Source: Escherichia phage vB_EcoM_JNE01
Length of the DNA: 64,000 bases
Sequence record: OR670491
Direction: 5' to 3' (one strand)
This document shows, piece after piece, positions 1 to 55,387 of this stretch. The notes beneath the pieces were generated by a model. It saw only the letters and a list, made by a program, of their open reading frames with translations. It was not told the origin of the DNA and did not search any database. Positions within the stretch are counted from its first letter, which is position 1. The number at the start of each line of letters is the position of its first letter. The translations under genes and the position numbers were made by a program.

Positions 1-219
1 GGGTTAGATGTTGGTGAGTTTATTTGGAATGGTGGAGACTGCCACATTTACAAAAACCACGTTGAACAAGTAAAAGAACAACTACTTCGTGAGCCACACG
101 AACTACCAGAATTATGGTTAGATCCTTCAATTACTTCTATCGAAGATTTGAAAATGAATTCATTCAAACTACTGAATTACAATCCAATGGCAACAATCAA
201 AGCACCAATGGCTGTATAA
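1..219 (+). CDS. thyA: thymidylate synthase, C-terminal fragment (5' end outside window)
   Basis: Frame-1 translation GLDVGEFIWNGGDCHIYKNHVEQ...LLNYNPMATIKAPMAV* matches the conserved ThyA C-terminus (GDxHxYxNH ... HPxIKAPxA); stop TAA at 217-219. Confidence 0.85.
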   Translation, partial: GLDVGEFIWNGGDCHIYKNHVEQVKEQLLREPHELPELWLDPSITSIEDLKMNSFKLLNYNPMATIKAPMAV

Positions 220-222
220 ACG

Positions 223-253
223 AAAGGGAGAACATATGTTCTCCCTTTTTTAT
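223..253. terminator. bidirectional intrinsic terminator
   Basis: Perfect 20-nt palindrome GGGAGAACAT/ATGTTCTCCC flanked by A-run upstream and TTTTTT downstream; lies between convergent thyA and the minus-strand fiber gene. Confidence 0.7.
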
Positions 254-2217: not shown

Positions 2218-2236
2218 GTAATATTTCCTCAGAATA

Positions 2237-2246
2237 GATTTATATA
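2237..2246 (-). promoter_or_regulatory. putative late promoter (TATAAATC on minus strand)
   Basis: Reverse complement reads TATATAAATC about 20 nt upstream of the ATG at 2217; 7/8 match to the T4 late consensus TATAAATA. Confidence 0.45.
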
Positions 2247-2260
2247 TTATGTATTTATTT

Positions 2261-2295
2261 TAGATAAAAGAAAAGGCCAACCATAGTTGACCTTA
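2261..2295 (-). terminator. intrinsic terminator after the 260-aa gene
   Basis: On minus strand AAGGTCAAC-tatg-GTTGGCCTT stem (one G-U pair) followed by TTCTTTTATC. Confidence 0.5.
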
Positions 2296-2308
2296 GAATA
2301 GTTATATA

Positions 2309-3091
2309 TTAACGAGTGCGTTCTGGAATTTCTACCCCTTCATACACCCATTTTGCTGCTAACTGTAGTTGGCGAATAGGTTCATCACCTACATCTTGTA
2401 CTGCATTAATTGCAGAAACTTGTGCATCACATTCAGCGAATACTGCATCAATCATAGCAAACAATTCATCATTTAGTTGAGTCATTTCTGCTGCTGAAAG
2501 AGTTAAAATTGCATCTGCAAGATATAAAGAAACTGATTCTTTACCAGCTTGAACTTGTGTGTAATAGTTTAGAACCATTTGACGACCAGCAATATCAGTT
2601 GGAATTAAATGATCTTTGAACTTATAACCAGCGGTTGAACGTTCAGAACGTGCACTATAGGTTCTTGCTACTAGTTCACTTTGTACATCAATGAAATTTG
2701 AATCCACATAATTGTAAGTTTTAAGAGCAGTTAGTGCTTTATAATCCCCTTGTGCTTCTTCAATAAAAGTAACTTCAGGTTGACTGGAATCTTTTAATTT
2801 GACGAATTCTAGATATTCACCAATTGCGTTAGTATTCCCGACATTTTTATTTTCCAACCACCAGAAACCTTCTTCTTTACGTACATCATCATTTCCTACA
2901 GGAGCCGGAGAGTTAGGAGAAACCGAGATGCCGTATAGTGGACGAATGTCAGAATACATGTTAAAATATTCTTTCCCTTCATCTGGGGTTGCGATAGTGC
3001 GAGGCTTCAATCCTTTTACGTTAACTGGATTGGAAATGATATTTCCGAGTTCGTAATTTTCTTGAGAGCTACCCTTAACAAATGTAAACAT
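2309..3091 (-). CDS. hypothetical protein between fiber genes (possible fiber assembly or accessory protein)
   Basis: ORF track 2309..3100 begins at GTG; an ATG three codons downstream (MFTFVKG...) is preceded by AAGGTGG RBS, so start placed at 3091; no recognisable motif. Confidence 0.55.
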   Translation of the reverse strand: MFTFVKGSSQENYELGNIISNPVNVKGLKPRTIATPDEGKEYFNMYSDIRPLYGISVSPNSPAPVGNDDVRKEEGFWWLENKNVGNTNAIGEYLEFVKLKDSSQPEVTFIEEAQGDYKALTALKTYNYVDSNFIDVQSELVARTYSARSERSTAGYKFKDHLIPTDIAGRQMVLNYYTQVQAGKESVSLYLADAILTLSAAEMTQLNDELFAMIDAVFAECDAQVSAINAVQDVGDEPIRQLQLAAKWVYEGVEIPERTR

Positions 3092-3125
3092 ATAAACCAC
3101 CTTATTTTATTTTTTTTTGAATTAG

Positions 3126-3166
3126 TATCGAAAAACCAGTACTGATCATTGTGACCAGTACTGGGG
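3126..3166 (-). terminator. intrinsic terminator after giant fiber A
   Basis: Two copies of the palindrome CCAGTACTG(G) separated by 10 nt form a stem; on minus strand followed by TTTTTCG. Confidence 0.45.
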
Positions 3167-3173
3167 ACATCAA

Positions 3174-6100
3174 TTATGAAGTACGTTGAGCAATAAACAA
3201 GTCAATAACGTTACTTACACCATCATATACTGCTTGGTAGATAGTAACACTGTTCGCTGCTAGGTTCTGTTCACCATCCACAATAGAGTAAGATGGGTCA
3301 GCAGTTAGTACACGGTTACCAGTTGCATCTTGCTTCGCATACATGAAGATAGATGCAGCTTTACCACCACCAATCAGGCCAGCAATTGGTGCTAGTGTGG
3401 TGTTCTGGTCTAGAGTGATAAAGTACACACTAGTAGAGCCATCAGGAGTCCATGTACCAGCCGGAGCAACAGTACTGGAAGTAACTTGTGATGGGATAAC
3501 ATCATACTTCTTAGTAGTTACAGAAGTAGTTACAAAGTTAGCTTCGTCAGTAGTGAATACACCAGCAACTTCAATACCTTTTTCGAAAGTAGCTTTCTCA
3601 ATGAAAGTACTTGTTCCGTTAACTGTGATAACATCTGCTGCTGCATCACCTAGTGTTACGCTACCAGTGGTAGTTAGTGCACCAGATATATTTACAGCCG
3701 CTAGGGTACTTGTACCAGTTACTGCTAGAGTTGAACCGATTGTTGCAGTGCCAGAAGTTGTTAGGTTAGTAACAGAAGCTTCTGCTAGTGTTGCTTTACC
3801 AGTTACACCTAGTGTACCACCAACAGTTGCTGCACCAGTTACGCCTAAAGTAGTTCCAACAGTTACTGCACCAGTGAAGGTTCCACCAACACCACTTACG
3901 TTACCACTGAACTCACCATCAACGCCTTTAACTTTACCAGTACTGGTGATTGCACCAGAACCTAAAGTACCAGTGATTGTCGCTGCTCCACCAACTGTTA
4001 AGTTACCAGTTGATTGCATTGAACCACCTTTAACTAGGTTAGTACTTGTTAGTGATTTAACGTTTACATCAGCATTTGATTGGTCAACGTTGGCATATAG
4101 AACACCACCAACTGTAAAGTTACCAGTAGTAACAACGTTACCGTTAACTGTTAAGTTGTTGTTTTGTGATCCAACTGCACCAAATGTACCAGAGTTTGCA
4201 ATAACTGCTGCGTCAGTTGAAATGTTACCAACTGCGGATAGAGTTGCAGAAGCTTCAATTGCATATGGTTCTAGTGTTTGACCACTTACGTCGATATCGG
4301 CGTTAATGCCACCTTCAACACGTAGTTTACCAGCAATAAAAGTATCAGGGAAAATCTGAACAGTTTCAGGTTGTTCACCAACTTTAACACCAACTACTAG
4401 GTTTGCACCAGTTTTAACTGTACCAGTTTCTAGTGAACCAGAAGTTACTTTGCCAGTTACTTTTGCATCAGCAGCTACAGTTAGTGCATCACCGGAAGCG
4501 GAGGACAATGCCAATGATGGAGCAGAAACAGCACCAGTTACACCTAAAGTGCCACCAACAGTTGCGTTACTTGTTACACCTAGTGTACCACCGAATGTAC
4601 CGTTTGTATCACTGTGGATAGCAGCAGAAGTAGACAAACTCTTCGCAACGATATCAGATGTTGTTAGGTCTAAACCACCAGCAGGAGTAAATGTACCGCT
4701 TACTGTTAGGTCATTAGTGAAAGATGAATTACCAGCCATAGTTAAACCAGCAGTACCAACAATACTTGTTGCAGAAACTGCACCAGTATCTAGTGAACCA
4801 GTTGTTGCTTTACCAGTTACACCTAAAGTATTACCTAAAGTAACAGCACCAGTTGTAGATAAAGTACCAGCTACAATTGCATTACCTTTAACATCAAGAC
4901 CAGTACCAGAAGCATTGGACAATGTTAGGGACGGAGCAGAAACTGCACCAGTTACACCTAGTGTACCAGCGATAGTTGAGTCACCACCAATAGTTGCCCC
5001 CGCAGTGCTCTTAATTGTGGTTGCCACGTCAAGGCTGTTTGCAGTAATATCAGAAGTAGATAGATCCAAACCACCCACTGGAGTGAATACACCGTTAACC
5101 GTTACAGCATCAGCAAATGTTGCAGCACCAGTTACACCTAGTGTACTACTAAATGTTCCAGATGTTGCAGAAACTGCACCAGTATCTAACGAACCAGTAG
5201 TTGCTTTACCTGTTACACCAAGAGTACCACCAACAGTTTGATTTCCGGTAACAGTAAGAGTCCCAGTTTGTGCATCAACAGTTGTGATTTTACCTGAACC
5301 ACTGATATCAGTAGTAGATACACCACCACTTAGAGTACTCAAACCAGTTGCTTTTAGGGTTGTCGCAACATCAAGACTGTTTGCTGTAATGTCTGCACCA
5401 CTTAGATCCAAACCACCTTCAGGAATAAATTCACCTTTAACAGTTAGTTTTTGAACTACTGAATCACCAGTTACGGTTAGAGCAGAAGAAGTTAAACCAC
5501 CGTTCAAAGTTGCTGCACCAGTAACACCAAGTGTACCACCGACAGCCGCATTAGAAGTTACTGAAGCGTTTTCTAGAGTTGCAGTACCGGAGATATTTGC
5601 ACCTTGTGCAGTGATACTACCAGTATCAACACGTACACCACCAGCTACAACTTGAATACCACCTGTATTAACAGTTAGTTTATTACCAACAGTTGCTGCA
5701 CCAGTTAGAGTGCTTGTACCAGCTACAGACAAGTTACCGGAAACGGCTGGGCTACCAGTTACATTACCAGTTGTTAGAACTAGATCAGCACCAACAGTAG
5801 TATTACCGACAGAAGCTAAAGTGTTTGCAGTTACATCAGAAGCAGATAGGTCAAATGTACCAGCTACTACCAAGTCACCACCGATATTTGCACCACCAGT
5901 AGTAGTGATTGATTTAGCACTAACATCAGTTGTTGCTAGGTCAATTGCACCTGGAGTTACAGTTCCGGTTACAGTTAAATCACCTGTTACTTTAGTGTTG
6001 CTTGCAATTTCCACACCAGTTTCGTTAGAAATGGTTGGAGTTACCAAGGAAACAGCAGTTGCTTGACCAGATACTGTTAGTGAAGTTCCAATTACTGCAT

Positions 6101-19492: not shown

Positions 19493-20101
19493 ATGAAGTT
19501 TGAAACAGAACAACCAAAACTATTTGTTAAGGGTCATGTACTAATTACTGATGTTACTGATCCAGAACATGAAAAAATTGTTTTAGACAAGTCCAACGCA
19601 ATTCACCCTGAAAATATGAGTACTGCTATTGCGAATGCTCTAGCTTATAACCAAGATAGTACGGGTATTCCTATCGGTTCTATTAGTGAAATGCGTTTTG
19701 GTAATGGTGGTACAGTAGTATTGAGTACTGGTCGCGTTACTTACAAAAAACCACGTGTAACATCGTTTGGTGGCTTGTATTCTGAAACATATTTGAAGAA
19801 AATCAACCCGCGTATCACTGCTGGTATTGATGCACAATACAATAACATTACAACTGTTCACATCCCAGGCCAATCTTATACTGATATCGTTTGTATCTGT
19901 ACTCTAGGTCTAGGTGAACCATCTGACCAAGCAGTTAGTTCCGGTACAAGCATGGATGGAACCTATGTATTTGATGAATTGGGGTTATATACAGATGGTG
20001 ATAGTGGTATTCCACTTACTCACATCATTTTCCACCCAGTTGAGAAAAGTGCTAACCGTGTATTGCAAATTAAATACACTGTACGTGTACAACTTCAATA
20101 A
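19493..20101 (+). CDS. hypothetical late protein (202 aa), probably structural
   Basis: ORF with AAGGA RBS tightly packed after previous gene; Gly/Thr-rich. Confidence 0.5.
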   Translation: MKFETEQPKLFVKGHVLITDVTDPEHEKIVLDKSNAIHPENMSTAIANALAYNQDSTGIPIGSISEMRFGNGGTVVLSTGRVTYKKPRVTSFGGLYSETYLKKINPRITAGIDAQYNNITTVHIPGQSYTDIVCICTLGLGEPSDQAVSSGTSMDGTYVFDELGLYTDGDSGIPLTHIIFHPVEKSANRVLQIKYTVRVQLQ

Positions 20102-24667: not shown

Positions 24668-26953
24668 ATGAACCTGACACAACTATTCAAGAAAAGCGAC
24701 GAACTGGCAACCTCTATGGGTCATACTTTTTTGACAATTGACCATGTGAGTGCTACAGTACTGACAGTTGATAGCATTGTTGACGTATTCAAGTCGATGG
24801 ACATTGACGCTGCAAAGCTTCATGCACGTTTGATTGATTATTTGAAAAACAACCCAGTTCCACCAGCACCAAAAAGTACTTTAGATGATGACTCGAACCG
24901 TACTTCACTTCTAGTGAATCGCGTGATGCAGGAACTGTCTAAAAAAGCAGTGATTGAACAGCTAAATCGTGATGATTTCTCCATTGATGCATATTTTGTT
25001 CTGTTTGAATGTTTGTCCTTCCCAAATACTGCATTCGAAGCAGTACTGAAAGAAGAAGGGGTTTCTTGTACTGAAGTAGCACGTACACTACAGAAACATG
25101 TAGAAGATATTGATACTGGCATCAACCTAAAAAGTATTAGCGACGAACCAACAGGGGACAAAAAAGTGGCTCAACAGCAACCAGCATCTAAGCAGAAAAG
25201 TTTGGAAGATTACACTACCAACCTTACCGCACTAGCGAAGGAAGGTAAACTCGACCCAATGATTGGTCGTCAAAAAGAGCTTGCTTCTCTCGTTGAGACT
25301 CTTGCTCGTAAAACTAAGAAGAACGCAATCCTAACTGGTGAAGCTGGCGTAGGTAAAACTCAAATCGTTGATGGTTTGGCACAAGCAATCGCAAATGGTG
25401 ATGTTCCAGAGCATCTAAAAGATGTGGAACTACTGTCTCTGAACGTTGGTGCACTAACTGCTGGTACAAAATACCGTGGTGAGTTTGAAGAACGCATTGA
25501 CAATCTTCTAAAAGAACTGAAGAAACGCGAAAACACCATCGTCTTCATCGATGAAATCCATATCATGGTTGGTGCTGGTTCTGCGAGCAACGGTTCAATG
25601 GATATGAGCAACATGCTCAAACCTGCTCTATCTCGTGGTGAGATTCGTGTCATCGGTGCAACCACTTATGACGAATATCGTAAAAACATCGAGAAAGACA
25701 GTGCTCTATCACGTCGTTTTATGAAAATTGATGTTGTTGAACCAACAGTTGAAGAAACTCGTGAAATTATCAACGGTCTACAAAAGACTTATGAGAAATT
25801 CCACAATGTAACCTTCACTAAAGGTGCGATGGATGCAGTTATTACACTAAGTGATAAGTTCCTGAAGAACAAACACTTCCCTGACAAAGCAATCGACCTA
25901 ATGGATGCGTCAGCAGCGAAGAAACGTTCTCGTGACAATGGTAATGAAATTACTGTTGGTGATATCCAAGAAGTTGTTGCTGGAATCGCTAACCTAGACC
26001 TGAACGTAGTTGCTTGTACTGAAAGTGAGCGTATGCGTAGTCTTCCTGATGCACTTCGTTCTCGTGTATATGGTCAAGAAGAAGCAGTAACTAAATTGGT
26101 TGATAACGTGATGGTTGCTCGTGCAGGTCTACGTGAATCTTCCAGTGTTCAGGGTGCATTCATGTTTGTTGGACCATCTGGTACTGGTAAAACTGAAATC
26201 ACCAAAGCGTTGGCTGATGCAACTGGTTCTAAACTGATTCGTTTCGATATGTCTGAGTTCTCTCAAGAACACACTGTGTCTAAACTGATTGGTTCACCTC
26301 CAGGTTATGTTGGTCACGATTCTGGTAATGGCCTACTACTAGACCAGATTGAGCAATACCCGAATGCAGTGCTGCTACTTGATGAAATCGAGAAAGCAGA
26401 TCGTAAAGTACTGTTGACTTTCCTTCAAGTTCTTGATGAAGGTCGTCTAACTGGTTCTCAAGGTAAGACTGTTTACTTCAACAACGTAACTGTTGTTATG
26501 ACAACTAACCTTGGTGCAGCAGACTCTACAAAACGTAGTATCGGTATGAGTGGTAGTGATACAGCACAGGATAAAGCGATTAAAGCTTTCCTACCGCCTG
26601 AATTCATCAACCGTATCGACAGTATCGTTACATTCAATGATTTGTCTTCTGATGCAATTCAGAGTATCATTGATAAATTCATGGGTAGTTTGAACGAACA
26701 AGTTAAAGACCGTGGTGTTAAGGTTTCTCTAACTAAAGCGGCTCGTGAATGGTTGGCGAAGAATGGCGTTAAGAACGGAATGGGTGCTCGTCCAATGAAA
26801 CGTACCATTGAACAGAATATCCGTGTTCCTCTGGCGAAAGAAATGCTTTGTGGTTCACTGGTTGATGGCGGTTCAGTAACATTTGATGTTATCAACGGTT
26901 CACTAGGCATTAAGCCAAAGCGTGTTAAAGCAGCAGATAAAGTAGAAGCGTAA
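24668..26953 (+). CDS. clpA: ClpA-type two-domain AAA+ unfoldase (761 aa)
   Basis: Two Walker A boxes (GEAGVGKTQ and GPSGTGKTE), Walker B IVFIDEIH and LLLDEIEKA, sensor/arginine-finger context GARPMKR, and KRSIGMSG loop aligning with the ClpA IGL ClpP-docking loop; collinear with E. coli ClpA over the full length. Confidence 0.9.
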   Translation: MNLTQLFKKSDELATSMGHTFLTIDHVSATVLTVDSIVDVFKSMDIDAAKLHARLIDYLKNNPVPPAPKSTLDDDSNRTSLLVNRVMQELSKKAVIEQLNRDDFSIDAYFVLFECLSFPNTAFEAVLKEEGVSCTEVARTLQKHVEDIDTGINLKSISDEPTGDKKVAQQQPASKQKSLEDYTTNLTALAKEGKLDPMIGRQKELASLVETLARKTKKNAILTGEAGVGKTQIVDGLAQAIANGDVPEHLKDVELLSLNVGALTAGTKYRGEFEERIDNLLKELKKRENTIVFIDEIHIMVGAGSASNGSMDMSNMLKPALSRGEIRVIGATTYDEYRKNIEKDSALSRRFMKIDVVEPTVEETREIINGLQKTYEKFHNVTFTKGAMDAVITLSDKFLKNKHFPDKAIDLMDASAAKKRSRDNGNEITVGDIQEVVAGIANLDLNVVACTESERMRSLPDALRSRVYGQEEAVTKLVDNVMVARAGLRESSSVQGAFMFVGPSGTGKTEITKALADATGSKLIRFDMSEFSQEHTVSKLIGSPPGYVGHDSGNGLLLDQIEQYPNAVLLLDEIEKADRKVLLTFLQVLDEGRLTGSQGKTVYFNNVTVVMTTNLGAADSTKRSIGMSGSDTAQDKAIKAFLPPEFINRIDSIVTFNDLSSDAIQSIIDKFMGSLNEQVKDRGVKVSLTKAAREWLAKNGVKNGMGARPMKRTIEQNIRVPLAKEMLCGSLVDGGSVTFDVINGSLGIKPKRVKAADKVEA

Positions 26954-26954
26954 A

Positions 26955-26990
26955 AAAGAAAAGGAGAGCATATGCTCTCCTTTTTTATTA
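26955..26990. terminator. bidirectional intrinsic terminator
   Basis: AGGAGAGCATATGCTCTCCT perfect palindrome then TTTTTTATT; same hairpin family as 223 and 21216. Confidence 0.75.
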
Positions 26991-29900
26991 ACTAAATTTT
27001 AATAAACGACCTACATCCAATCCACTAATTGTCAAACTGTCTGTATAAACACTCAATTCAATTGGCAAATAGTTCTCACCATATTTCTTGAACTTATCAA
27101 TGTTTCCTAAGTTCATGCCAGTAAATGTATATGTCTCATCTAGTTTGAAATCATGTTCCGCACTGTACATCGCACCACGTAGTAAGTTATTTGCATTACG
27201 TACTTGGACTTTCTCGTAACCCAATGAAATAACATCATTCAGTGAAGCTGCTGCACCCGATAGAACATTATTGGTAACACTGTATGGGCTTACCGATGAA
27301 GGTTGTGAAACATAGGTCATATGTTCATTCTCAATCATCGTAATGCTTGTCACAGTACTACCAACAGCGGTAATATAAGCATTTGATACTAGTGGGTAGT
27401 TATACACCCAAACCCCGTCAGAATTACGTGTAGGTTCTAGTAAACCAGCATCGTATTCAAACACGTTAATCTCAACGCTATCAACCATTCTTGTTCTTAC
27501 TAGTTCACTTAGAACACCAGAACCAGTAATAGGTAGATTATAGCCGTTATCGATTGTAACCCCGTCCACAACGAAAATTTCATTTGACACTAACCATAGG
27601 TCAATATCACTTGAAGTTATTCCGTCATTATATGAACCGTTATCTAATGTCGTGTCATAAAATACTTCGTATTTCATTGCATCAATTGCATAGTTTCGGT
27701 TTTCTTCGTATAATTTAACTCCATTAACAACAAATTCAGGATCTGCGAATGTTCTAATACGAACTAGGTTCAGTGCTAGAGGCATTGCATGTTCACCAGC
27801 TTTGTTAGTAGTGATGTTATCAAACATCAGTACTGCACCAGTTGAATCTAGTAATTCAACAGTACCATTGGCTGTATTATTTCGTACAGTGAATAGTTTA
27901 GGTGTAGTTCCTGTTTTGATTTTAGATACACTCAAGATGGTTTCCCATGTATCGTTTTGGTATCTTACAAAATCCTCACCATCAGTGGTGAAAATCATAA
28001 CTTTATCCCCATTAGCTAATGAATTATCTACTAACTTCATTTGACTTTGAGTTTGCACTGATTTCACTTGATAGAAGTATTTTTCATCATACTTATCTGT
28101 TGTTGCACTAATATCGTTAGATACTTTTGCGTATGAAGGAATACTAATAATTGCTTGTCCATAGTTGTAAGGATTGATTAGAACCATACCTTCAACATGT
28201 AAGCGACTATTGTCACGTAGCTGAACTTGAGCAGCAGTATCAAAGCCATATCCATCAATCGTTACTCTGATTTGACCGATATCACGTTCCGCTGGGTTCA
28301 CATCACGAATATCAATGATATAAGGATCAACCTCATCGTCTTGTACTGACCATTTCATGGTAGCTGTTTGTGATTCTAGTGCTAGGTTATCGAAAGAGTT
28401 CATATCATTATAATATTTCGCACCTTCAATACCGTCTAGTATTTGTTTATAATCAGAATACATTGGATTGTTAACATCTTGCGGTAAATCATCCAAATTG
28501 ATTTCAGCTAAACTTACAGCCTGACCAGTTGTGATGTAGATATCTTCGATGAAATCGTCAATACTTTGATTACGTGGAATACTAACAAACGTATCATTTA
28601 CTTTAGCATATACATATTTTCTAGGAATCATAGTGAATGCATAGTTTTGTACAGAATTATTACTTAGTACTTCTTCGGCAATTTCATAATTATTGGAAGC
28701 ATCCTTGTTAAACAAGTTACGCATACCAGTTAATACATGAACTGCGTCGGTGTAATATCTTCTTACTTCAATTACAACTTCTTCACCATCTTCATCTTGA
28801 ATTGTTTGTTCTTCCATGAACTTATACATGTAAACGCCGTATTCAACTTCTAGCTCAATTCTAACTTCCTCGTCACTGAACGCAGGATTTGCAGTTTTAA
28901 TCAAATCAACATATTTCTTATACAATTCACTGGATACTTCATAATAACCTAAGTTATAATCAGTACTGCTTGCGAAACCAAACGGTAGACGAGTGCTTGG
29001 GTTGTCAGTGAAGGTCACTCCACTAAAACCACATCCAACTTCATCATGAATAACTTCATTACTAGCACCAGTGTACAGCTTCAATCGGTTAGAAAGAGTG
29101 TTGTACTGAACATAATGTTTAACATCGTCAAACACTTCGTTATTTGTCGCTTCTGCATAAATGCGGTGAAGATTTTGGGTAAATTCTTCAGTTAGTGCTA
29201 AGTTATCAGAATTTTCTTTATACCAATCGTTAATTGCTTTAGCAGCACCCATTGTAATATTCATACTTGGATATAGAATTTGCATTTGGTATGCAACTTG
29301 TAAATCTAAAGTTTCTGAATTATTTTCAGGGAAGGTATAAATGAATCTTTGTAACTCAAAATCACTGACTACATCTTTTTCGTTACTTTGATACTTGTTG
29401 TTAACTGCATTTAGTACATCTAGGCTTGCCAAATCTTCATTTGGTTTACACTGAATGTTGTCATAATGCATAATCACATCAATTTCTTGGAAACGTCTAT
29501 TTGGTGTTACAAAATCGCTTGGCAATGAACCAATTTGTTCCCATCTCTGAGTAACATCACTAAACTGTGCGTATTCATAGTCCCAAATATCTTTTTCAGT
29601 TTTAACCCAAGAACCATCAACAAGAATATAGCCATTTGGATCGAGGTCGTTGCATAATCCTTTGATAACATCATCATCTGATGTTTTCTGTTCAATCTGA
29701 GAACGAATCTTAGTTCTGTACGGTTTAACTTCTTCAAAGTACTCGACAATTTGATTAATCAAGTTATCGTTTGAATAGTTCTGTACAAGAGATTGCTCTA
29801 GACCAATAATATAAATGTAAGATGTTTTGAATACCCAGTCCACAACACCCTGTTCAACGTGAACATACTTAACCATATCAAATACTATTGTACTTTGATG

Positions 29901-32900
29901 TAAATCGAAAGAGTTTTTCAATAAAGCTAGTGCTTTACGAACGTTAATCTCTCTATTACTCAATGAACCACTTTCAGTTCTCACAGTATAATCAGCATAC
30001 AACATATCGTTCAATTCAATTGTACTGTTTTCACGTCCAATTGCTTTCCAATATATAGATTCACGTGATTCTGCTTTAATGTAAAGAGTCCATATACCAT
30101 CACTATCAGTAACACGAATTACATCACCGATTTGGTAGTTTTTAGCATTTGCATCATCTAAACTGTCTTCTTGTGTATAAGAAGTTGTGCTACTGTATCC
30201 TTCATCATACCAGTCGGCAAGATTCCAGTACTGAGTCATGTCTAGAGACGTTCCCAATGATTCTTCAAAGTCAGCGTGCTTGATCATTTTGTGTTGACCT
30301 TCACCACGGTTCTCTAATGTGATGGTAACGATGCTACCAGCACTAGATGGGCTATTCATTAGATGAATATAACCGTTAGCGTCAATGTGAACAAAATAAA
30401 CAGAGCTTGTGGTAAGTGGGGTCGGTAATGAGCCGCTTGTACTAACCAGTACTGCATCGTTTTCTTTGAACTTATCACTTTCTGGTGCAATTACTAACTC
30501 ACTATTGTAAGAAAGAACACGGAAAGCAACTTCATTTGGGTTAACTTCAGTTGTTTTAACGTTAAACACTTCAGCCATCACAACTGTATTAGTTGTCATG
30601 TTTTGTGAACGGTAAAAATCATTTGCACTGTCTACAAAAGTACGGCGAGCTTCAATAACATCTTGGAACCATGTTTTATTGGAACCTAAACCATTATCAA
30701 CGGCTGGATATAGCAAATCAATCACACTACCAGACTCGGTTGTTTCTTGGCCTCTTAAAGAGTTCCACATTGAATCCCAAATTGCACTATTGAAGTTATA
30801 ACTGTCACCTTCTTTACATAGTTGATATTGGTCATGTTTGACAACTTCAGTGTTATCCATATAATATGAAATAGTTAGAACACTTGTGTCATCATTCACT
30901 TCAAATTGCATATTGCTTAGAATAAATGAGCTTTCATTGATTGGTGCGAACCAAGGAATGTTTAATTGTGCTGGTTCTTCAATGATTCTCGCAATATCAG
31001 TACAAGACTTAGTTCTGGTATGTAGTGGTGGTACATAAATGGTATCACGTACCCAGAAATAGTATTTTGTAACATAAGAATCAGTTGCACTATCATATTC
31101 CAAAAATGCACTGTAGTTATCTTCCAAAGCAGTACCGCTCGGTAGATACATAGTGTTATTTTTGTTTTTCTTAGCCATATCTTTGCAATATGTTTCCCAG
31201 TTGTATGGTTCAACAGGTGAACATACCCATTCTAGGACATCAATCTTGCTATGTGGTAACAATTTACCCCAGTTGTAGCGTTTGTATTCATTTGTTGCTT
31301 CAACATCCACAACACCGTCTGCATCAAAGATTGGACGAGTATAATCCAAGTAGTATGCAGTACTTGTGTTCCACCAAACCTGACCAACTTTATCAGCACC
31401 CCATGCTTGCAGCAATTCACCATTGCTATTGTACTGAGCAGGGTCAACTGGAGTTGTGTAGTTCACGTTTTGCATTGCCACACCAGGGATAACACCGTTA
31501 ATCGGGTCAAACACGTTAAGGTATAGTGCAGTTACGTTTGTACGGTCATCATAAGTTGTTGGGCGGTCAAACAAGGTACTTTCTGGTGCTTTATAGCTAT
31601 ATTTCTTATCCATATACGCCTGACGGTCTGCGTCAGTACTGAAACGACTCTTATAACGATATAGTTTAGGTTGAGTATCAACATCAGTAAATGTAATGTC
31701 GATTGATGTATCAAACGGAACTACCATCACTTTAGGATCTGTACCAGCAGTGTAATATTGGCTTTCAACAGTTAATGAATCAGGCATAAAGTTTGTTTCA
31801 TCAACGAAATAATAGTATTCACCATCTACCAGTGGAATGTTATCGCTCAAAGTTACTTTACAGAATTGTTCTGCATATGGGTCGTTATTTTCGATAGGTG
31901 TAATACTTAACATCTTAACTTCAGTATCAACTAAATCAAAAATATCCCATAAACCATCAACATCTTTATACATCCATACAGATTCTGGGATTTCACCAGT
32001 TTTGTTCATATATTGAATACGGTCATCGTATGCAGTACTGAATTCTTTAGTGATATATGAAATTTCATCTAAAGAAACTGGGCCAATGTCTGGTAATTGA
32101 ATATTCTCACTTCTTCCACTACGCATAGGGAATGAGAATTTACCATTTGGACGTGTAACCCAACGTGGGTCTGCACCTTGTTCACCAAAGTAAACGATGT
32201 TATTACCGTTTCCATTTGATGTTGCATGAATATCAAAAGAAACTAGTTGTGGTTGTTGTTTAAACTGATCATTGATTAGTTTAAATTGTAGGTTTTTCTT
32301 ACCATCTACGTTACCGTAAGTACCGATTTTAAACGCCCATTCTTGAAGTGCTTTATACTCTTCAGTATCGTAAGACTTAGATACGCGTAATACTTTCTCT
32401 AGTACTTGATTCGAACCTTTATCATGAATAAAACCTTTATAGAAATCTACACGGTTAGCATCGCTACCAATCATACGTTGTAGATAATCACGGGTTTGAT
32501 ATCCAATAAGGTGGTTCGATAGTTCTTGTAATTGAATATCACTAACAGGAGTTTCGCTGTTGTAATACAATTCAAAATCAGTAACTAATTTTTCAAAGGA
32601 AGGTAATGTACCAGCTTCTAGAATGATGAATCCAGGAGCTTGTAGTCTACCAGTCCATGAACCAGTAATGTAACCATACATTTTAATTAGTTCTTGTACG
32701 GAACCGAATGTTGGTTGATAGATATAATCACCGAAGATAGTCTGGTCATCGAAAATAACAGCATGTTCATATGAGCATAGACTCAAACGGATTAGTGCCA
32801 TACGTTTATCCGAATCATCAGTTGTTCTTACAGTGAAGACGTTACCAATGCGAGATGTTTCAATCTCATATTGACGAATACCTTGGTTTTGATCATCAAG

Positions 32901-35900
32901 TAGTGACCATACACCACCGCTATTCTGTGCAATTGATTGTACTGAACCAAAATCTGCACCAAATTTAGCATTTGCTGAACTTGGAGTACAAGAAATGTAT
33001 TCACCACTCACAAGAGTACTTTGACTCCATGTTACGAAATCTTTAGCAATAGTATTCCAGTCTTGTTGAGCACCAGAATCGTTTACATCTTCAAAAATCC
33101 AACCATGTTCTTTTAGATACTCACCATAACCACAAATGAAAGTATATACTTCCTGATAAGTGTTGAATACTTTACCATATTCAATTTCACTTTCATTTTT
33201 CCATTCATTGTAATGAGCAACATTACGGGTTCCAATTTTTAGTGATACTTTCTTGCCGTTCTTAACTGGTAATTTATATTTGAATTTAGCACCAACCAAA
33301 TCATAACCATCAATTTGGTATGCACTACCAGTCCATGTAATTTTCACTGCACTAATTACTTCGTCACGAATATTACTGGAACGAACTAGTCCGATAGTTT
33401 GGTTTTCTTGTGAAATCAGACCAAAAGATTTTGCTGTAAATGTTAGTTGGTCAGCTTTAGTGAAGCCACCAATTTTATGTCCCACGTTAACGTAAGAAGA
33501 ACGAACAACATCACCATATTTTGTAGTAATATTTTTATTTTGATAAGCCAAATAGTCACTAACAAACATTTGATAGCCAACGGTTCTGGTATTATTTTCA
33601 CCATGAACTACTGTAGCACTGTCAAAGTTAATTCGTTTACGGGTTTCACCATAAAGGAACTGTGGTTGACCAGTATATACAGAATTTAGACTGTTATTAC
33701 GGGTATCCCAGTAATAGTTTGCGAACTGTGCTGGTTTAGCTTTATACAATAGAAGCATTTGGTCGTAAGCGAACATAGCAGTGTTCATGTAAGTGAATTC
33801 CATGTCACCCATGTCACCATATGACCACGGTTCAGCACGATGATTCAATGAACCACTAACTAGACCTAGAACTTCAGGAGCGATGTACTCAATCTCACAA
33901 ATATCGATACCAGTGCTTGTCTTAGAGCCTGTTTTTGTAATTTTGAACGGTTGTACACCGAAACGTTTGTATTTGTCGTATTGACCTTTACGTGCACCAT
34001 ATAGGATTGTACCAGTACTGCTATCACCAATGGTTCCGTCAACTGACCATAGGCCACTTGGAACATAATCACCATTTTCGTTTAGTACTAGAGCTTCATA
34101 TACAGCAACTGTATCACTTTCACGTTCACCAACCTGTACATATGTTGGTTCATACTCTTGGTTCCACCATGATGGACGTTGAGAGAATCCTAGCATTTCC
34201 CACGGATGGGTTGCTGGACGATATGTACCGTACTGATCAGTGTAAATTGCACGCCATGAACCACGAGCAGGAATATCAGATACATGACCATCAACTACAT
34301 AATTGGTTCCAGTATAGTTCCATGTTTTCCAGTTACTTTGGACATATGCATTAGTACTGTTACTAATACCGTTGGTAGCAGTAAAGTTAATGTATCCACG
34401 CAATAGTAGAGTTTGTTTCTCTGCCATCGTATAATCAGTTGTCTGGAAATACGGGGTTGGGAATAAATCTTCACTACTTAGTACTGGTTGATAATCTACA
34501 TCTTTGAATACGTTATCAATACTATCAAAAATACGAGATTCCAATTCAAACACAACATCATCCATTTTATCAACACCGTTAATTGCACGATATGATTTGG
34601 AAATAATACCAGTGTGGCTGATATTATAGAAGCTTGATTTGCTACCTGGATTTAGGTATGTAGCTTTTTGTGGTGCATAAGCTTGTAGAATACCTAAGAA
34701 TTGTGGTGTTGGTGGAACAAATGTACGAATAAAACCAGAAGTGCTTGCTACGTTGTCATAATAGAATGGGAATGAACTATCACGTCCCATGTTAATAGCA
34801 CTAAAAATTGCATCTACAATATTAGAAGCACTATTAGCAACAAAGCCACTTGGATCTTCGTCATACATACGAATCATTTGTGTATTGAATTTGTTAATGA
34901 AGCGGAAGTATTCTGCTTGCATAAACATGATAGCTTCAAACAAATCGATATCTTCGTTTGCAGTGTGAGCCATCAATGGAAGCATTGAAGCTTCGTTTTG
35001 AATAATGTGAGTACCGACACCATTATCAACCAACCCAGCAGCTAGACGTTCTTCGTAATCGTTGAAGTCATCAGATGAACCACTTGTAATATTCTTTTGA
35101 ATAATATCCTTGAAATGTAGGGTGTACATTCCTTGGTTGATATAAATGATATTACCGTTGTATGGGTTATTTTGTAAGTTGATTGGAATTTCATATGCAC
35201 CAAGATTCTTATCAGGAGTAATAGTACTGCTATAAGTTCTGATTTGAATAACTGAATCTTCATCTAGTGCAACAGTACTATCGATTGTAATACTTTGAAC
35301 TTGATTTTTGGACACGGTTTTGCTGAAGCTGTTGGTAACTACACCATCAACTGTTAGCTCAATAATGTCATCAGAATTATCAAGTACTTTCTGTGCCAAT
35401 TCAAATGTATGATTGTATTTTACACTTTGAACACCGTCGCCAGTGATAACGTGCCAATCAAGATATGTTTCTTTTTCTGCTTTGTAATATTGGTAAGTGC
35501 GATCCACTTCGATTACATAAGCATACATTCCATCAACTGGTGAACGGAAACTTTCTAGATCGTAAACAGTACTGAATACACGATACATGTCAGTACGGGT
35601 AACTTCTAGAGTTTGTTTAACGAACTGTTTGGAATATTCAGCAGAACGAACCCAGTCAGTTTTTAGGTGCATAGAATTGTCTTCACCGATGACGTTAAAA
35701 TAATACAAACCGTCAATCTCAACTTCTTCACCTAAATGATCATATGTATAACGTTCGGACTGTAGAAAGTTCTCATATGTATAATAGTTGTAATCACCTA
35801 ATTCGATGTTATAACCATATACACCATCAGTTGGATAGTTGTAGTTGATTTTAAATCCAAATAGAGAAGAACCTTTGAAAGTACTGGATGGATAAACGGC

Positions 35901-36998
35901 ACTATCGTTTAGTTTATTACCATTGCGATCATATAATTGGAATTGTGGGAAAAAGTTAACTGTAGGTTTGGCTTGTGCTTGAACCCAATGTGCACCATCC
36001 CAATACATTGAACTATTACCATAGGTATTACCTTTAGTAATTAGAACCACGTCACCTTTAATTGGTTCACCACTTGGACGGTCTTCAGTTTCTTCTTCAG
36101 GATCTAATGCTAGACCATATACGCGTGTACCATCTTGTAATTTTTTAATGTATACTTTATAAATTCGGTTATTCTCACCACTGTTACCAATACTGGTGAA
36201 GAGAATGCGTTGACCATCTTGTGGGATAATCCCGTCAATACGAATACCGGAGTTCACATCTTTTTGAACCATATCTTCTGGTTTGATGGTATCAGAGTAC
36301 AAATCAACTGTACCACGGAATTTAGTACCGTAGTTTAGAAGTTCGATATCTTTATTGAACTCGATAATAGGTGCTTTAGCACGAACGAAACGCTCATCCT
36401 GCATTAGATCTTGGGTTAGTACTGTACCATCCCCTAATGTTTCACCTAGAGTGTACCAGAAGTTTTGTAGGGACCATGTGTTGCCGTTAGTAGCATTACG
36501 TTCCATTACAACATAGTCTGGAGTTTGAATATTGTATTCGTTTTGTGTATCCCAAAGATATGAACTGTAGTTGTTCATTTTGTTTGGGTTAATAGCAGGT
36601 GTCCATGCGTAAAACTTACCAGCAAATAGGCGACTTTCATTATCAGTTAGTGCACCGTAATGATTCATGTAGCCAACGAGGTCATCATAAAATTGAATTG
36701 AACGAATACTGCGGTCATCATTTCTTGAGACGTAAGCAGTGGATAACTGATACAGTTGACGTGCAACTGTTGATTCAGCTAGGAAGATGTTACCTTCAGC
36801 GGCGGGAGAACCCATATCACCAATATAGCCGTCAACCAATTCGTTTTCAGCCGGATTAAACCATTGTTGAATGACATCATCACTTACCTTCTGAATGTCT
36901 TCTAGACCTTGCATCCATTCAGGTAATCTTTTGATGAAAAGTTTTTTCTGTACTGCTTCAGCCGTTTGTGTAGGTTGAAACTTAAAATTATTAGTCAT
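26988..36998 (-). CDS. giant virion structural protein (3336 aa), baseplate/fiber-associated (possibly gp7-position)
   Basis: Uninterrupted ORF of ~10 kb; start placed at second ATG (MTNNFKF) which has TGGAG RBS; located directly downstream of gp6-like gene in baseplate operon; Tyr/Asn/Asp-rich beta-type composition. Confidence 0.7.
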   Translation of the reverse strand: MTNNFKFQPTQTAEAVQKKLFIKRLPEWMQGLEDIQKVSDDVIQQWFNPAENELVDGYIGDMGSPAAEGNIFLAESTVARQLYQLSTAYVSRNDDRSIRSIQFYDDLVGYMNHYGALTDNESRLFAGKFYAWTPAINPNKMNNYSSYLWDTQNEYNIQTPDYVVMERNATNGNTWSLQNFWYTLGETLGDGTVLTQDLMQDERFVRAKAPIIEFNKDIELLNYGTKFRGTVDLYSDTIKPEDMVQKDVNSGIRIDGIIPQDGQRILFTSIGNSGENNRIYKVYIKKLQDGTRVYGLALDPEEETEDRPSGEPIKGDVVLITKGNTYGNSSMYWDGAHWVQAQAKPTVNFFPQFQLYDRNGNKLNDSAVYPSSTFKGSSLFGFKINYNYPTDGVYGYNIELGDYNYYTYENFLQSERYTYDHLGEEVEIDGLYYFNVIGEDNSMHLKTDWVRSAEYSKQFVKQTLEVTRTDMYRVFSTVYDLESFRSPVDGMYAYVIEVDRTYQYYKAEKETYLDWHVITGDGVQSVKYNHTFELAQKVLDNSDDIIELTVDGVVTNSFSKTVSKNQVQSITIDSTVALDEDSVIQIRTYSSTITPDKNLGAYEIPINLQNNPYNGNIIYINQGMYTLHFKDIIQKNITSGSSDDFNDYEERLAAGLVDNGVGTHIIQNEASMLPLMAHTANEDIDLFEAIMFMQAEYFRFINKFNTQMIRMYDEDPSGFVANSASNIVDAIFSAINMGRDSSFPFYYDNVASTSGFIRTFVPPTPQFLGILQAYAPQKATYLNPGSKSSFYNISHTGIISKSYRAINGVDKMDDVVFELESRIFDSIDNVFKDVDYQPVLSSEDLFPTPYFQTTDYTMAEKQTLLLRGYINFTATNGISNSTNAYVQSNWKTWNYTGTNYVVDGHVSDIPARGSWRAIYTDQYGTYRPATHPWEMLGFSQRPSWWNQEYEPTYVQVGERESDTVAVYEALVLNENGDYVPSGLWSVDGTIGDSSTGTILYGARKGQYDKYKRFGVQPFKITKTGSKTSTGIDICEIEYIAPEVLGLVSGSLNHRAEPWSYGDMGDMEFTYMNTAMFAYDQMLLLYKAKPAQFANYYWDTRNNSLNSVYTGQPQFLYGETRKRINFDSATVVHGENNTRTVGYQMFVSDYLAYQNKNITTKYGDVVRSSYVNVGHKIGGFTKADQLTFTAKSFGLISQENQTIGLVRSSNIRDEVISAVKITWTGSAYQIDGYDLVGAKFKYKLPVKNGKKVSLKIGTRNVAHYNEWKNESEIEYGKVFNTYQEVYTFICGYGEYLKEHGWIFEDVNDSGAQQDWNTIAKDFVTWSQSTLVSGEYISCTPSSANAKFGADFGSVQSIAQNSGGVWSLLDDQNQGIRQYEIETSRIGNVFTVRTTDDSDKRMALIRLSLCSYEHAVIFDDQTIFGDYIYQPTFGSVQELIKMYGYITGSWTGRLQAPGFIILEAGTLPSFEKLVTDFELYYNSETPVSDIQLQELSNHLIGYQTRDYLQRMIGSDANRVDFYKGFIHDKGSNQVLEKVLRVSKSYDTEEYKALQEWAFKIGTYGNVDGKKNLQFKLINDQFKQQPQLVSFDIHATSNGNGNNIVYFGEQGADPRWVTRPNGKFSFPMRSGRSENIQLPDIGPVSLDEISYITKEFSTAYDDRIQYMNKTGEIPESVWMYKDVDGLWDIFDLVDTEVKMLSITPIENNDPYAEQFCKVTLSDNIPLVDGEYYYFVDETNFMPDSLTVESQYYTAGTDPKVMVVPFDTSIDITFTDVDTQPKLYRYKSRFSTDADRQAYMDKKYSYKAPESTLFDRPTTYDDRTNVTALYLNVFDPINGVIPGVAMQNVNYTTPVDPAQYNSNGELLQAWGADKVGQVWWNTSTAYYLDYTRPIFDADGVVDVEATNEYKRYNWGKLLPHSKIDVLEWVCSPVEPYNWETYCKDMAKKNKNNTMYLPSGTALEDNYSAFLEYDSATDSYVTKYYFWVRDTIYVPPLHTRTKSCTDIARIIEEPAQLNIPWFAPINESSFILSNMQFEVNDDTSVLTISYYMDNTEVVKHDQYQLCKEGDSYNFNSAIWDSMWNSLRGQETTESGSVIDLLYPAVDNGLGSNKTWFQDVIEARRTFVDSANDFYRSQNMTTNTVVMAEVFNVKTTEVNPNEVAFRVLSYNSELVIAPESDKFKENDAVLVSTSGSLPTPLTTSSVYFVHIDANGYIHLMNSPSSAGSIVTITLENRGEGQHKMIKHADFEESLGTSLDMTQYWNLADWYDEGYSSTTSYTQEDSLDDANAKNYQIGDVIRVTDSDGIWTLYIKAESRESIYWKAIGRENSTIELNDMLYADYTVRTESGSLSNREINVRKALALLKNSFDLHQSTIVFDMVKYVHVEQGVVDWVFKTSYIYIIGLEQSLVQNYSNDNLINQIVEYFEEVKPYRTKIRSQIEQKTSDDDVIKGLCNDLDPNGYILVDGSWVKTEKDIWDYEYAQFSDVTQRWEQIGSLPSDFVTPNRRFQEIDVIMHYDNIQCKPNEDLASLDVLNAVNNKYQSNEKDVVSDFELQRFIYTFPENNSETLDLQVAYQMQILYPSMNITMGAAKAINDWYKENSDNLALTEEFTQNLHRIYAEATNNEVFDDVKHYVQYNTLSNRLKLYTGASNEVIHDEVGCGFSGVTFTDNPSTRLPFGFASSTDYNLGYYEVSSELYKKYVDLIKTANPAFSDEEVRIELEVEYGVYMYKFMEEQTIQDEDGEEVVIEVRRYYTDAVHVLTGMRNLFNKDASNNYEIAEEVLSNNSVQNYAFTMIPRKYVYAKVNDTFVSIPRNQSIDDFIEDIYITTGQAVSLAEINLDDLPQDVNNPMYSDYKQILDGIEGAKYYNDMNSFDNLALESQTATMKWSVQDDEVDPYIIDIRDVNPAERDIGQIRVTIDGYGFDTAAQVQLRDNSRLHVEGMVLINPYNYGQAIISIPSYAKVSNDISATTDKYDEKYFYQVKSVQTQSQMKLVDNSLANGDKVMIFTTDGEDFVRYQNDTWETILSVSKIKTGTTPKLFTVRNNTANGTVELLDSTGAVLMFDNITTNKAGEHAMPLALNLVRIRTFADPEFVVNGVKLYEENRNYAIDAMKYEVFYDTTLDNGSYNDGITSSDIDLWLVSNEIFVVDGVTIDNGYNLPITGSGVLSELVRTRMVDSVEINVFEYDAGLLEPTRNSDGVWVYNYPLVSNAYITAVGSTVTSITMIENEHMTYVSQPSSVSPYSVTNNVLSGAAASLNDVISLGYEKVQVRNANNLLRGAMYSAEHDFKLDETYTFTGMNLGNIDKFKKYGENYLPIELSVYTDSLTISGLDVGRLLKFS

Positions 36999-37032
36999 TG
37001 TTGGACTCCATATAATTCGTTCATTCATTTGA

Positions 37033-37043
37033 TTTATTTATGA
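37033..37043 (-). promoter_or_regulatory. putative late promoter (CATAAATAAAT) for the giant protein gene
   Basis: Minus strand TATCATAAATAAATCAA about 37 nt upstream of the RBS-supported ATG at 36998. Confidence 0.45.
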
Positions 37044-37046
37044 TAT

Positions 37047-37072
37047 AAAAAAGACGTTCCGAAGAACGCCTT
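37047..37072 (-). terminator. intrinsic terminator after gp6-like gene
   Basis: GGCGTTC-ttcg-GAACGTC hairpin followed on minus strand by TTTTTTAT. Confidence 0.5.
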
Positions 37073-40545: not shown

Positions 40546-41310
40546 TTAATCCTTTAATATTATGTTAAAATTATCATAAAAGTACCTTTTTAGTACTGAG
40601 ATATGATCCTCATTGTATTTTATACGAAGCAAGTTAATATCATGTTCAGTACAGTACGCGTTTTTAATTTTATCATTGTGTTGAGTTTGTTTTAGTGATT
40701 CATCTCCACCCCAATGTTCTGAACATTGAAAATGCTGTTCACCATCATATTCAATACACAAATTCAAATCTTCAATATAAAAATCAAATGGTAAAGTGAA
40801 TACGTTTCGACAATCAGAAAAACGCTTTTCTTTTACATACTTCATAAAAGATAACATTTTTTCTATATCTGTTACAGCTTTTGATTGAGTTGATTCCATC
40901 ATACACTGCTCACAACCATGCCTACTAGCCAAATGATTATCAGGTCTTTGTAAAAATGACCCATGTATGGGGCATATTATGGATATATGTGTTTTGTTGT
41001 TAATATACTCCGCAGTATTGTAATCAAATTTGTTTTTAAACTTCAAATTAGCTTTTTCACGAAAATTTATAAAGTTTTTTGGACTTTTTTGACGGTTTGC
41101 ATTATATTCTTTTGAACATTTCATGCAACCTTTACCACTAGTATGATCGTTTGGTCTTTGAAGAAAAAAACCATGCTTTTCACACCCAATCCATACCTTT
41201 GTTTTTGCATTATGGTATTTAACCATACTATAATCATATCTAATTCCATGAACTCGTATTGCATTGGTCACAAATTTGTCTTTCGTTGATCTTGTGGTTG
41301 CATATTTCAT
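40546..41310 (-). CDS. free-standing homing endonuclease-like protein (two CxxC/HG repeat modules plus Vsr-like PD-(D/E)xK nuclease domain)
   Basis: Two tandem ~60-aa modules with HGxxYDYS...KVWIGCEKHGFFLQRPNDHTSGKGCMKC / ...ISIICPIHGSFLQRPDNHLASRHGCEQC; C-terminal ...FDFYIEDLNLCIEYDGEQH resembling Vsr/Hef-type endonucleases; GGAG RBS. Confidence 0.6.
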   Translation of the reverse strand: MKYATTRSTKDKFVTNAIRVHGIRYDYSMVKYHNAKTKVWIGCEKHGFFLQRPNDHTSGKGCMKCSKEYNANRQKSPKNFINFREKANLKFKNKFDYNTAEYINNKTHISIICPIHGSFLQRPDNHLASRHGCEQCMMESTQSKAVTDIEKMLSFMKYVKEKRFSDCRNVFTLPFDFYIEDLNLCIEYDGEQHFQCSEHWGGDESLKQTQHNDKIKNAYCTEHDINLLRIKYNEDHISVLKRYFYDNFNIILKD

Positions 41311-41379: not shown

Positions 41380-41775
41380 TTATACAGAAGATACTGAATA
41401 AGTAGCCATTCTATTATTACTTCTAGCATCAAACACAATAGTTAGTTCTTCCAATGTTTCCAGAACCACATAACCAAGTAAAATGCTCATCTGATATCCA
41501 TACTCAATTCTGGAAATTTGAAGTTCTTTTAATTCAAGACGTGGATCTAATCCAATTATTCTTCGGGCATCAGCTTCAAGAAGGTTGATTGTATTGTAAC
41601 CATCCAGTTCGAATAGTAAATCCCATGCAATAAACCCGTAGTCAGCATCAAATGCCCTTTCGCCTTTCTTTGTATTAAAATGATTAATAAGGTCTTGACG
41701 TACCAATTCACTATCGTATAATGTTTGTGTTTTCCCTACTACTGGAGTAGAGAATCCTTTAAAAACTATAGCCAT
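41380..41775 (-). CDS. 25: gp25-like baseplate wedge protein (GPW/gp25 family, 131 aa)
   Basis: Size and motif KKGERAFDADYG matching the gp25 xGSRPFDPEFG core; AAGGAA RBS. Confidence 0.6.
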   Translation of the reverse strand: MAIVFKGFSTPVVGKTQTLYDSELVRQDLINHFNTKKGERAFDADYGFIAWDLLFELDGYNTINLLEADARRIIGLDPRLELKELQISRIEYGYQMSILLGYVVLETLEELTIVFDARSNNRMATYSVSSV

Positions 41776-55378: not shown

Positions 55379-55387
55379 CATAAATAT
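55379..55387 (+). promoter_or_regulatory. putative late promoter (CATAAATA)
   Basis: GTCATAAATATCTT about 33 nt upstream of ATG 55420. Confidence 0.45.

Follow-up and report, generated by a model that had tools for sequence, protein, structure and literature searches.

The baseplate genes of contractile systems are found in a general order, in which a gp25/W/TssE gene is followed by a gp6/J/TssF gene, a gp7/I/TssG gene and a fibre gene. The slot after the gp6-type gene holds a small wedge subunit of the gp7/gpI/Tri2/TssG type in P2, T4 (genes 6–7), pyocins and type VI secretion systems (TssE-F-G). In T4, gp7 is the wedge subunit of the (gp6)2-gp7 trifurcation unit, and the job of building the baseplate periphery is split among gp7, gp8, gp9, gp10 and gp11. 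We saw the P2 order W-J-I-H, with gpI after J, and P2 gpI is a homologue of the pyocin 'Tri2' protein PA0619 in PDB entry 6U5B. Here we describe a gene in this slot that codes for a protein of 3336 amino acids (aa), referred to below as the giant. It lies in a 64,000-nucleotide (nt) stretch (the window) of Escherichia phage vB_EcoM_JNE01 (sequence record OR670491), which by its sequence is an Asteriusvirus, the genus of 121Q, and a Rak2-like jumbo coliphage. Our favoured reading, to which we give a probability of about 0.55, is that the giant is a single-chain peripheral baseplate scaffold of the Rak2-like jumbo myophages, occupying the gp7/gpI/TssG slot.

The uninterrupted ~10-kb open reading frame (ORF) that the original prediction reported after a gp6-like gene is present on the minus strand, with its stop codon at 26988–26990; given the base composition of the window, 3336 codons without a stop would arise by chance with p ~1e-99. 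Escherichia phage Turkey5 has 99.5% nt identity over the full gene, and 121Q, PBECO4, phAPEC6 and about 30 further Rak2-like jumbo phages have ~80% identity over its first 82%. The protein matches phrog_10938 ('virion structural protein'; E=0, 5290 bits) from residues 1–3333 against positions 1–3324 of the 3324 in the profile, and it has phAPEC6 gp245 and the 3323-aa 121Q gp582 (annotated 'virion structural protein') among its orthologues. Electrospray ionisation tandem mass spectrometry (MS) of purified phAPEC6 virions identified gp245 (381.88 kDa) with 17 unique peptides and 7.6% coverage, and it is listed next to gp244, a 131-kDa 'baseplate wedge' protein (PMC7247149). Virion association is therefore experimental for this close relative, which together with the neighbouring baseplate genes bears out the proposal of a virion protein in a baseplate module. 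The gene itself is not new, being annotated in GenBank, represented by a PHROG and detected by MS in 2020; no function or structure has been assigned to its product in the literature we searched. We consider it confirmed that the ORF is a real gene under purifying selection and that its ~380-kDa product is a virion protein in Rak2-like jumbo phages.

Frameshifts and assembly errors had been raised as a possible source of so long an ORF, and there are records that look at first sight to be in keeping with this. GenBank MH494197 (Escherichia phage CMSTMSU) annotates nine hypothetical proteins across the orthologous region, and some metagenomic relatives appear split. However, the ORF is intact in Turkey5, 121Q, PBECO4, phAPEC6 and dozens more phages, with almost all of the 32 phage records that cover at least 80% of the gene having a single coding sequence (CDS) there, and hundreds of metagenomic homologues are full-length ORFs. 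The 382-kDa product was detected in phAPEC6, and the ratio of nonsynonymous to synonymous substitution rates (dN/dS) is 0.10 along the whole length. The nine-protein annotation of CMSTMSU probably reflects frameshift errors in the record, not biology, and a fusion of several genes by sequencing errors is so improbable that we give it almost no weight. The split cases are found in three distantly related loci (L006, L007 and L008), and each has a simple explanation: an apparent TAATG-coupled split in L006 (9999–10003) has homology continuous over the junction and is explained by a 1-nt deletion in TTGGTAATG, the junction in L007 (~2740–2745) consists of scaffold Ns, and that in L008 (8001–8032) is a frameshift beside A/T runs within a conserved motif. 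A natural gene split at aa ~1395, as a sign of two modules, was considered and dropped with these three junctions so explained.

There are two candidate start codons, a first ATG at 37028 giving 3346 aa and a second at 36998 giving 3336 aa. The second is the true start because it has a GGAG ribosome-binding site, the N-termini of 120 homologues align from its methionine (with the pattern M-x-N-x-F-x-F), and its equivalent is the annotated start in 121Q; the original assignment of a start supported by a ribosome-binding site is thus correct. The upstream ATG is too close to a promoter-like motif, has no ribosome-binding site, and is probably not used. The motif, CATAAATA, is 44 nt upstream of the start and resembles the T4 late promoter TATAAATA, and the ATAAATA late promoter-like element noted previously was found within it. 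Thirteen of the 15 ATAAATA occurrences in the window are 24–56 nt upstream of a gene start on the same strand, nearly all of these gene-proximal sites fall in the small intergenic fraction of the window, and the four exact copies of TATAAATA are all among the gene-upstream sites. This clustering points to T4-type late promoters in a jumbo phage. Examples are at 37041, 42301, 48225, 52873 and 54741 (minus strand) and at 55380, 60646, 61308 and 62518 (plus strand). In 121Q, this region has a gene annotated as a late sigma factor (gp591). Terminator-like hairpins are present on both sides: the first separates the gp6-like gene from the promoter-like motif and is followed by a T-run, and the second, of 11 bp, directly follows the stop codon. 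With the promoter-like motif these make the giant gene look like a late transcription unit of its own. The 121Q intergenic region has the same sequence and the same promoter and terminator architecture.

The position of the gene speaks for the proposed role. The baseplate module of the window is on the minus strand and reads gp53-like, gp5-like, gp25-like and gp6-like, and then the giant. The gp6-like protein has a full-length match to phrog_10646 and a match to phrog_219 (E=3e-22), and its N-terminus aligns with T4 gp6 residues 21–113 (hhalign E=0.001). The order of gp25-like gene, gp6-like gene and third gene is present in the window with an HNH gene interposed, and a match to a gp7 or gpI family is absent from every other gene of the module. 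The giant is directly downstream of a gp6-like gene (DUF8360; ~1120–1190 aa) in the window, in 121Q and in the distant loci L004, L005, L006 and L008, and the same pairing is present in PA5oct (gp128/gp129) and RsoM2USA (ORF361/362). The giants of L004, L005, L006 and L008 are only 25–28% identical and the gene order is kept: genes for ~250-aa, ~100-aa and ~900-aa proteins are followed by gp5-like, GPW_gp25 and ~1120-aa gp6-like (DUF8360) genes, the giant, and then a ~200-aa protein and/or fibre-type genes (with Gp34_trimer, Peptidase_S74 or Collar domains).

Several observations weigh against this reading, and chief among these is that a relationship to gp7-type proteins could not be detected. 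Pfam recognises both T4 gp7 (fn3, Gp7_helical, Gp7_5th, Gp7_6th) and P2 gpI (Tail_P2_I), but Gp7_helical, Gp7_5th, Gp7_6th and Tail_P2_I match neither the giant nor 19 members of its family. Homology comparisons were made between profiles and single sequences or shallow profiles. With a 121-sequence profile, hhalign gave a probability of at most 0.4% for each of T4 gp5, gp6, gp7, gp8, gp9, gp10, gp11, gp12, gp53 and wac, and homology to these is not supported; the T4 gp7 score is not above that of shuffles, being reached by 62 of 150 (hhalign) and 564 of 1000 (HMMER). Profile searches of PDB sequences at E ≤ 10 gave no matches with either the full-length or the core profile, and neither did a PDB sequence search with the single protein. 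P2 gpI aligns over 100 columns (hhalign E=0.042), and over 10 columns when a gpI family profile is used, although this profile is shallow, with homologues gathered only at ≥70% identity. Both gpI and PA0619 align by a short 'KGT' or 'HLIG' motif alone, with shuffle p ~0.02–0.03 (2 of 150, over seven columns, and 32 of 1000 for gpI; 18 of 1000 for PA0619). The 'KGT'-helix motif is mid-chain and in the same register in the gpI, PA0619 and T4 gp7 alignments; we rejected it as evidence of homology, its shuffle p being marginal for gpI and PA0619 and not significant for T4 gp7, and keep it as a lead. No paralogy of the giant core with the gp6-like N-terminus, as would be expected of gp7-type proteins, was detected by hhalign (E=0.49). 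The 7.6% MS coverage of the giant in phAPEC6 compares with 24.2% for the gp6-like protein, values that are not quantitative for copy number (PMC7247149), and the literature searched yielded no cryo-electron microscopy (cryo-EM) map of a Rak2-like baseplate. We therefore do not place the giant in the gp7 family, as homology is not demonstrated by sequence or fold, and propose it as the counterpart of gp7 in position and, probably, in function.

The giant belongs to a large family. A database search with the protein returned 212 homologues, 120 of which were listed, with lengths of 2,800–5,400 aa; residues ~1–2450 are kept in all of them, and relatives have insertion hot spots after aa ~150 and around aa 1700–1800. 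A profile of the 166 most conserved residues (aa 1400–1565) was run exhaustively against 1.84 billion representatives and identified 1,171 clusters (50% identity) at E ≤ 1e-3, 650 of them reaching E ≤ 1e-30. The members found with this core profile are mostly 2,500–6,400 aa long, and among the 144 newly listed the median is ~4,200 aa and the longest has 6,362 aa. The core carries the motif EH..IFDN.TIFGD..WNGR..APGF..NFEK..HLIGYQ..FYxGFIxEKGT..EEWAFKxGxYG, and the conserved block that contains it ends in a near-invariant VDWVFKTSYI...EVKPYRTKIR. Beyond this the last ~850–875 residues align whole-length only among closer relatives (overall identity ≥43%). Comparison with 121Q gives dN/dS values of 0.10 for the whole protein, 0.094 for aa 1–1395, 0.063 for aa 1396–2460 and 0.148 for aa 2461–3336. 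The C-terminal part has a dN of 0.24 against ~0.10 elsewhere and so changes ~2.3-fold faster at nonsynonymous sites, with purifying selection still acting, and its identity is graded across relatives, which indicates at the sequence level that it is vertically inherited and not mosaic.

In distant members, CBM_5_12, FG-GAP_2, TIG and He_PIG domains are inserted, none of which Pfam finds in the JNE01 giant. In the core itself, Pfam (E ≤ 10) on 19 core segments finds a CBM_5_12 insertion alone, in five distant members, and a CBM_5_12 domain of ~50 aa between query aa ~1460 and 1465 was observed in seven distant members. With a domain inserted there in many distant members, the part of the core that carries it must, judging from these alignments, be surface-exposed, and the insertions as a whole fit an exposed peripheral location.

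The giant is acidic and without internal repeats. AlphaFold2 models of aa 1–1190 (from a 23-sequence alignment) are confident (mean predicted local distance difference test, pLDDT, 87; predicted template modelling score, pTM, 0.81), with only the N-terminal helices at aa 10–47 poorly defined; those of aa 1255–2454 have moderate confidence (pLDDT 74.9, pTM 0.50). The models suggest a multi-domain protein that is globular, not fibrous, with mixed alpha/beta domains across the modelled aa 1–2454. The best-conserved stretch, aa ~1409–1555, is the least confident part of its model (pLDDT 28–65), with five short helices at aa 1468–1539. High conservation with low confidence in a monomer model is expected of segments that fold only with partners, and aa 1400–1565 is for this reason a candidate subunit interface. 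Foldseek against the PDB found no solved relative of either modelled part (best E 0.055). The original prediction of a 'fused baseplate-fiber or multi-domain adhesin/enzymatic megaprotein' agrees with the models in its multi-domain aspect and is not supported in its enzymatic one: searches of Pfam, NCBIfam, PHROGs and PDB sequences over the whole length, and a fold search with aa 1–2454, found no catalytic domain.

We considered three other roles for the giant. The most serious of these, although unlikely, is that it is associated with the baseplate periphery and is not a gp7 equivalent, with another small protein forming the wedge core and the giant serving as an accessory organiser of an outer ring or of fibres. 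This would accord with the lack of any detected similarity to gp7, gpI or TssG by sequence or fold, and a candidate for the small protein is the gpI-sized phrog_11259 product. A highly conserved gene for it is directly after the giant in L004, L005, L006, L007 and L008, a further point against placing the giant itself in the wedge, and there is an orthologue in the window at 19493–20101 on the plus strand (E ~1e-42). The virion list of phAPEC6 includes a 21.95-kDa protein, gp251c, which may be this orthologue. However, the phrog_11259 protein has no gpI or gp7 similarity, appears by eye to be beta-rich with no obvious N-terminal helix-turn-helix, and in the window is encoded on the opposite strand at a distance of 7 kb; the giant, by contrast, has the slot after the gp6-like gene in all genomes examined. 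We note that this protein is ~200 aa long (L004 21654–22241; L005 23976–24644; L006 20404–21009; L007 11268–11936) and is recognisable at E ~1e-42 between phages whose giants share 25% identity.

It is distinctly less likely that the giant is an adhesin that binds receptors, or resembles a fibre, whether as part of the proximal tail fibre or as a fused baseplate-fibre. The giant lacks repeats and shows neither a coiled-coil nor a beta-helix signature, its compact monomer models are confident without trimer partners, and the C-terminus is vertical and not mosaic, with graded identity and a dN/dS of 0.15. Pfam finds no fibre domains in it (Collar, Peptidase_S74, Gp34_trimer and similar) and no carbohydrate-binding (CBM) or immunoglobulin-like (Ig) domain, and it has no domains in common with the fibre proteins of the window. 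Moreover, the RaK2 fibre components have been mapped experimentally to other genes (PMC10253068). It is very unlikely that the giant is an internal or ejected virion protein (tape-measure-like, an ejection protein or a virion enzyme) that is merely encoded beside the baseplate genes. Giant ejected proteins of this size do exist, the N4 virion RNA polymerase being a virion enzyme of 3,500 aa, and the giant is virion-associated with low peptide coverage and has no assigned function. But it has neither a Pfam match nor any motif of a polymerase or other enzyme, the domains are mixed alpha/beta and globular rather than extended helix, which with the location of the gene after the wedge genes does not conform to a tape measure, and the gp25-gp6-X-fibre placement is invariant as sampled in L004, L005, L006 and L008 (in a family of more than 1,000 clusters). 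The CBM insertions in relatives also argue for an external location.

If the giant is indeed a peripheral baseplate scaffold, its place in the wedge, copy number and partners can be proposed as follows. One copy per wedge, six per virion, would join a dimer of the 1153-aa gp6-like protein, with contacts made by a conserved stretch to which the monomer model gives little order, either aa ~1400–1565 or the helices at aa 10–47. The other ~3000 residues of packed globular domains would build an enlarged baseplate periphery, acting as a docking platform, with sockets, for the branched network of tail fibres. The C-terminal ~875 aa, which evolve fast, may face the fibres or the host surface, and the CBM- and Ig-type insertions of relatives would face outward. 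In RaK2 the fibre network is attached via a gp528 anchor whose baseplate partner is unknown (PMC10253068), and we count this unfilled role in favour of docking on the giant. A more far-reaching version, which we offer tentatively and think possible, is that the giant replaces the whole of a T4-type wedge periphery, providing the functions of gp7 together with those of gp8, gp9, gp10 and gp11, that a gp7-like core-bundle element diverged past detection is buried at aa ~1400–1565, that the other ~3,000 residues are novel folds without PDB relatives, and that a very large clade, made up of uncultured jumbo phages, has it as its defining baseplate protein.

Rak2-like jumbo phages such as 121Q, PBECO4, phAPEC6, RaK2, K64-1 and GAP32 are studied for therapy owing to their elaborate multi-depolymerase fibre systems, and the giant bears on the question of how the baseplate carries such a network. 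At ~380 kDa it is the largest virion component without an assigned role, and its slot is that of the wedge subunit which connects sheath triggering with receptor binding. As a scaffold of the wedge or periphery, six copies would contribute ~2.3 MDa of baseplate, and the fibre anchor, which is gp528 in RaK2, would probably dock on the giant. As the family is large and has no solved relative, a single cryo-EM structure would annotate more than 1,000 metagenomic giant proteins. The interest lies in the architecture, a non-repetitive ~380-kDa protein with no detectable relative among solved structures in the slot of gp7.

The features of the locus are listed in Table 1. The 162-aa lysozyme is paralogous to the lysozyme domain at the C-terminus of the neighbouring gp5-like hub and matches phrog_13211 positions 727–885. 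An HNH homing-endonuclease gene is located between the gp25-like and gp6-like genes, and 121Q carries the note 'associated with group I intron'. In L004, L005 and L006 the gp6-like gene directly follows the gp25-like gene with no HNH gene between them, and the HNH gene therefore looks like a mobile insertion within the baseplate module. Convergent with the giant gene, at 24668–26953 on the plus strand, is a gene for a ClpA/ClpB-type double AAA+ ATPase (AAA_2, AAA, ClpB_D2-small, AAA_lid_9), which shares the terminator hairpin after the giant and is unusual beside structural genes. A role for it as a chaperone of the 380-kDa protein is conceivable, although speculative.

Table 1. Features of the giant gene, its product and the adjoining baseplate module (window coordinates)
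Feature	Coordinates	Strand	Comment
Giant CDS, 3336 aa	26988..36998	-	Orthologue of 121Q gp582 / phAPEC6 gp245; PHROG 10938
In-frame upstream ATG (3346-aa reading)	37026..37028	-	No ribosome-binding site; 6 nt after promoter-like motif
GGAG ribosome-binding site	37006..37009	-	7 nt before ATG 36998
CATAAATA, promoter-like	37035..37042	-	Identical in 121Q
Terminator-like hairpin with T-run	37051..37072	-	Between gp6-like and giant genes
Terminator-like 11-bp hairpin	26959..26984	-	After stop codon; shared with convergent ClpA-like gene
Conserved N-terminal block, aa 1-1395	32814..36998	-	aa 1-150 kept in all relatives
Core segment, aa 1400-1565	32304..32801	-	Most conserved stretch of the family
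Second conserved block, aa 1396-2460	29619..32813	-	Contains the core; well-predicted mixed alpha/beta domains
Fast-evolving C-terminal part, aa 2461-3336	26991..29618	-	
gp6-like baseplate wedge protein, 1153 aa	37080..40541	-	Immediately upstream of giant gene
HNH endonuclease	40546..41310	-	phrog_559
gp25-like sheath-initiator/wedge protein	41380..41775	-	Pfam GPW_gp25
Stand-alone lysozyme paralogue, 162 aa	41789..42277	-	
gp5-like hub/tail lysozyme, 887 aa	42316..44979	-	
Structural protein, 712 aa	44991..47129	-	
gp53-like wedge protein, 104 aa	47141..47455	-	Pfam Phage_gp53

Among described proteins, those most similar to the giant are the other members of PHROG 10938 (121Q gp582, phAPEC6 gp245 and those of PBECO4, RaK2, GAP32 and CBB), which have the same length (3320–3346 aa) and the same slot after the gp6-like gene; nothing substantive differs, apart from the faster divergence of the C-terminal ~875 aa. 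At the aa level, the proteins of Pectobacterium phage CBB and of the closer metagenomic relatives are 57–82% identical to the giant. We also count the peripheral baseplate proteins of phiKZ (PHIKZ027, PHIKZ087) and Staphylococcus phage 812 (a DUF4815 protein) among the closest known systems. P2 gpI (176 aa), PA0619 Tri2 and TssG share the slot, but the giant is ~19 times larger than gpI and has no Tail_P2_I match. Compared with T4 gp7 (1032 aa) it is 3.2 times longer, in accord with the several-fold difference originally noted, lacks fn3, Gp7_5th and Gp7_6th, and has no detectable sequence or fold similarity. Nonetheless, each is a large multi-domain monomer encoded immediately after the gp6-type gene of a baseplate module, and the conserved helical part of T4 gp7, which is mid-chain after the peripheral domains (Gp7_helical, aa 643–689), has its counterpart in position in the conserved helical stretch that is also mid-chain in the giant.

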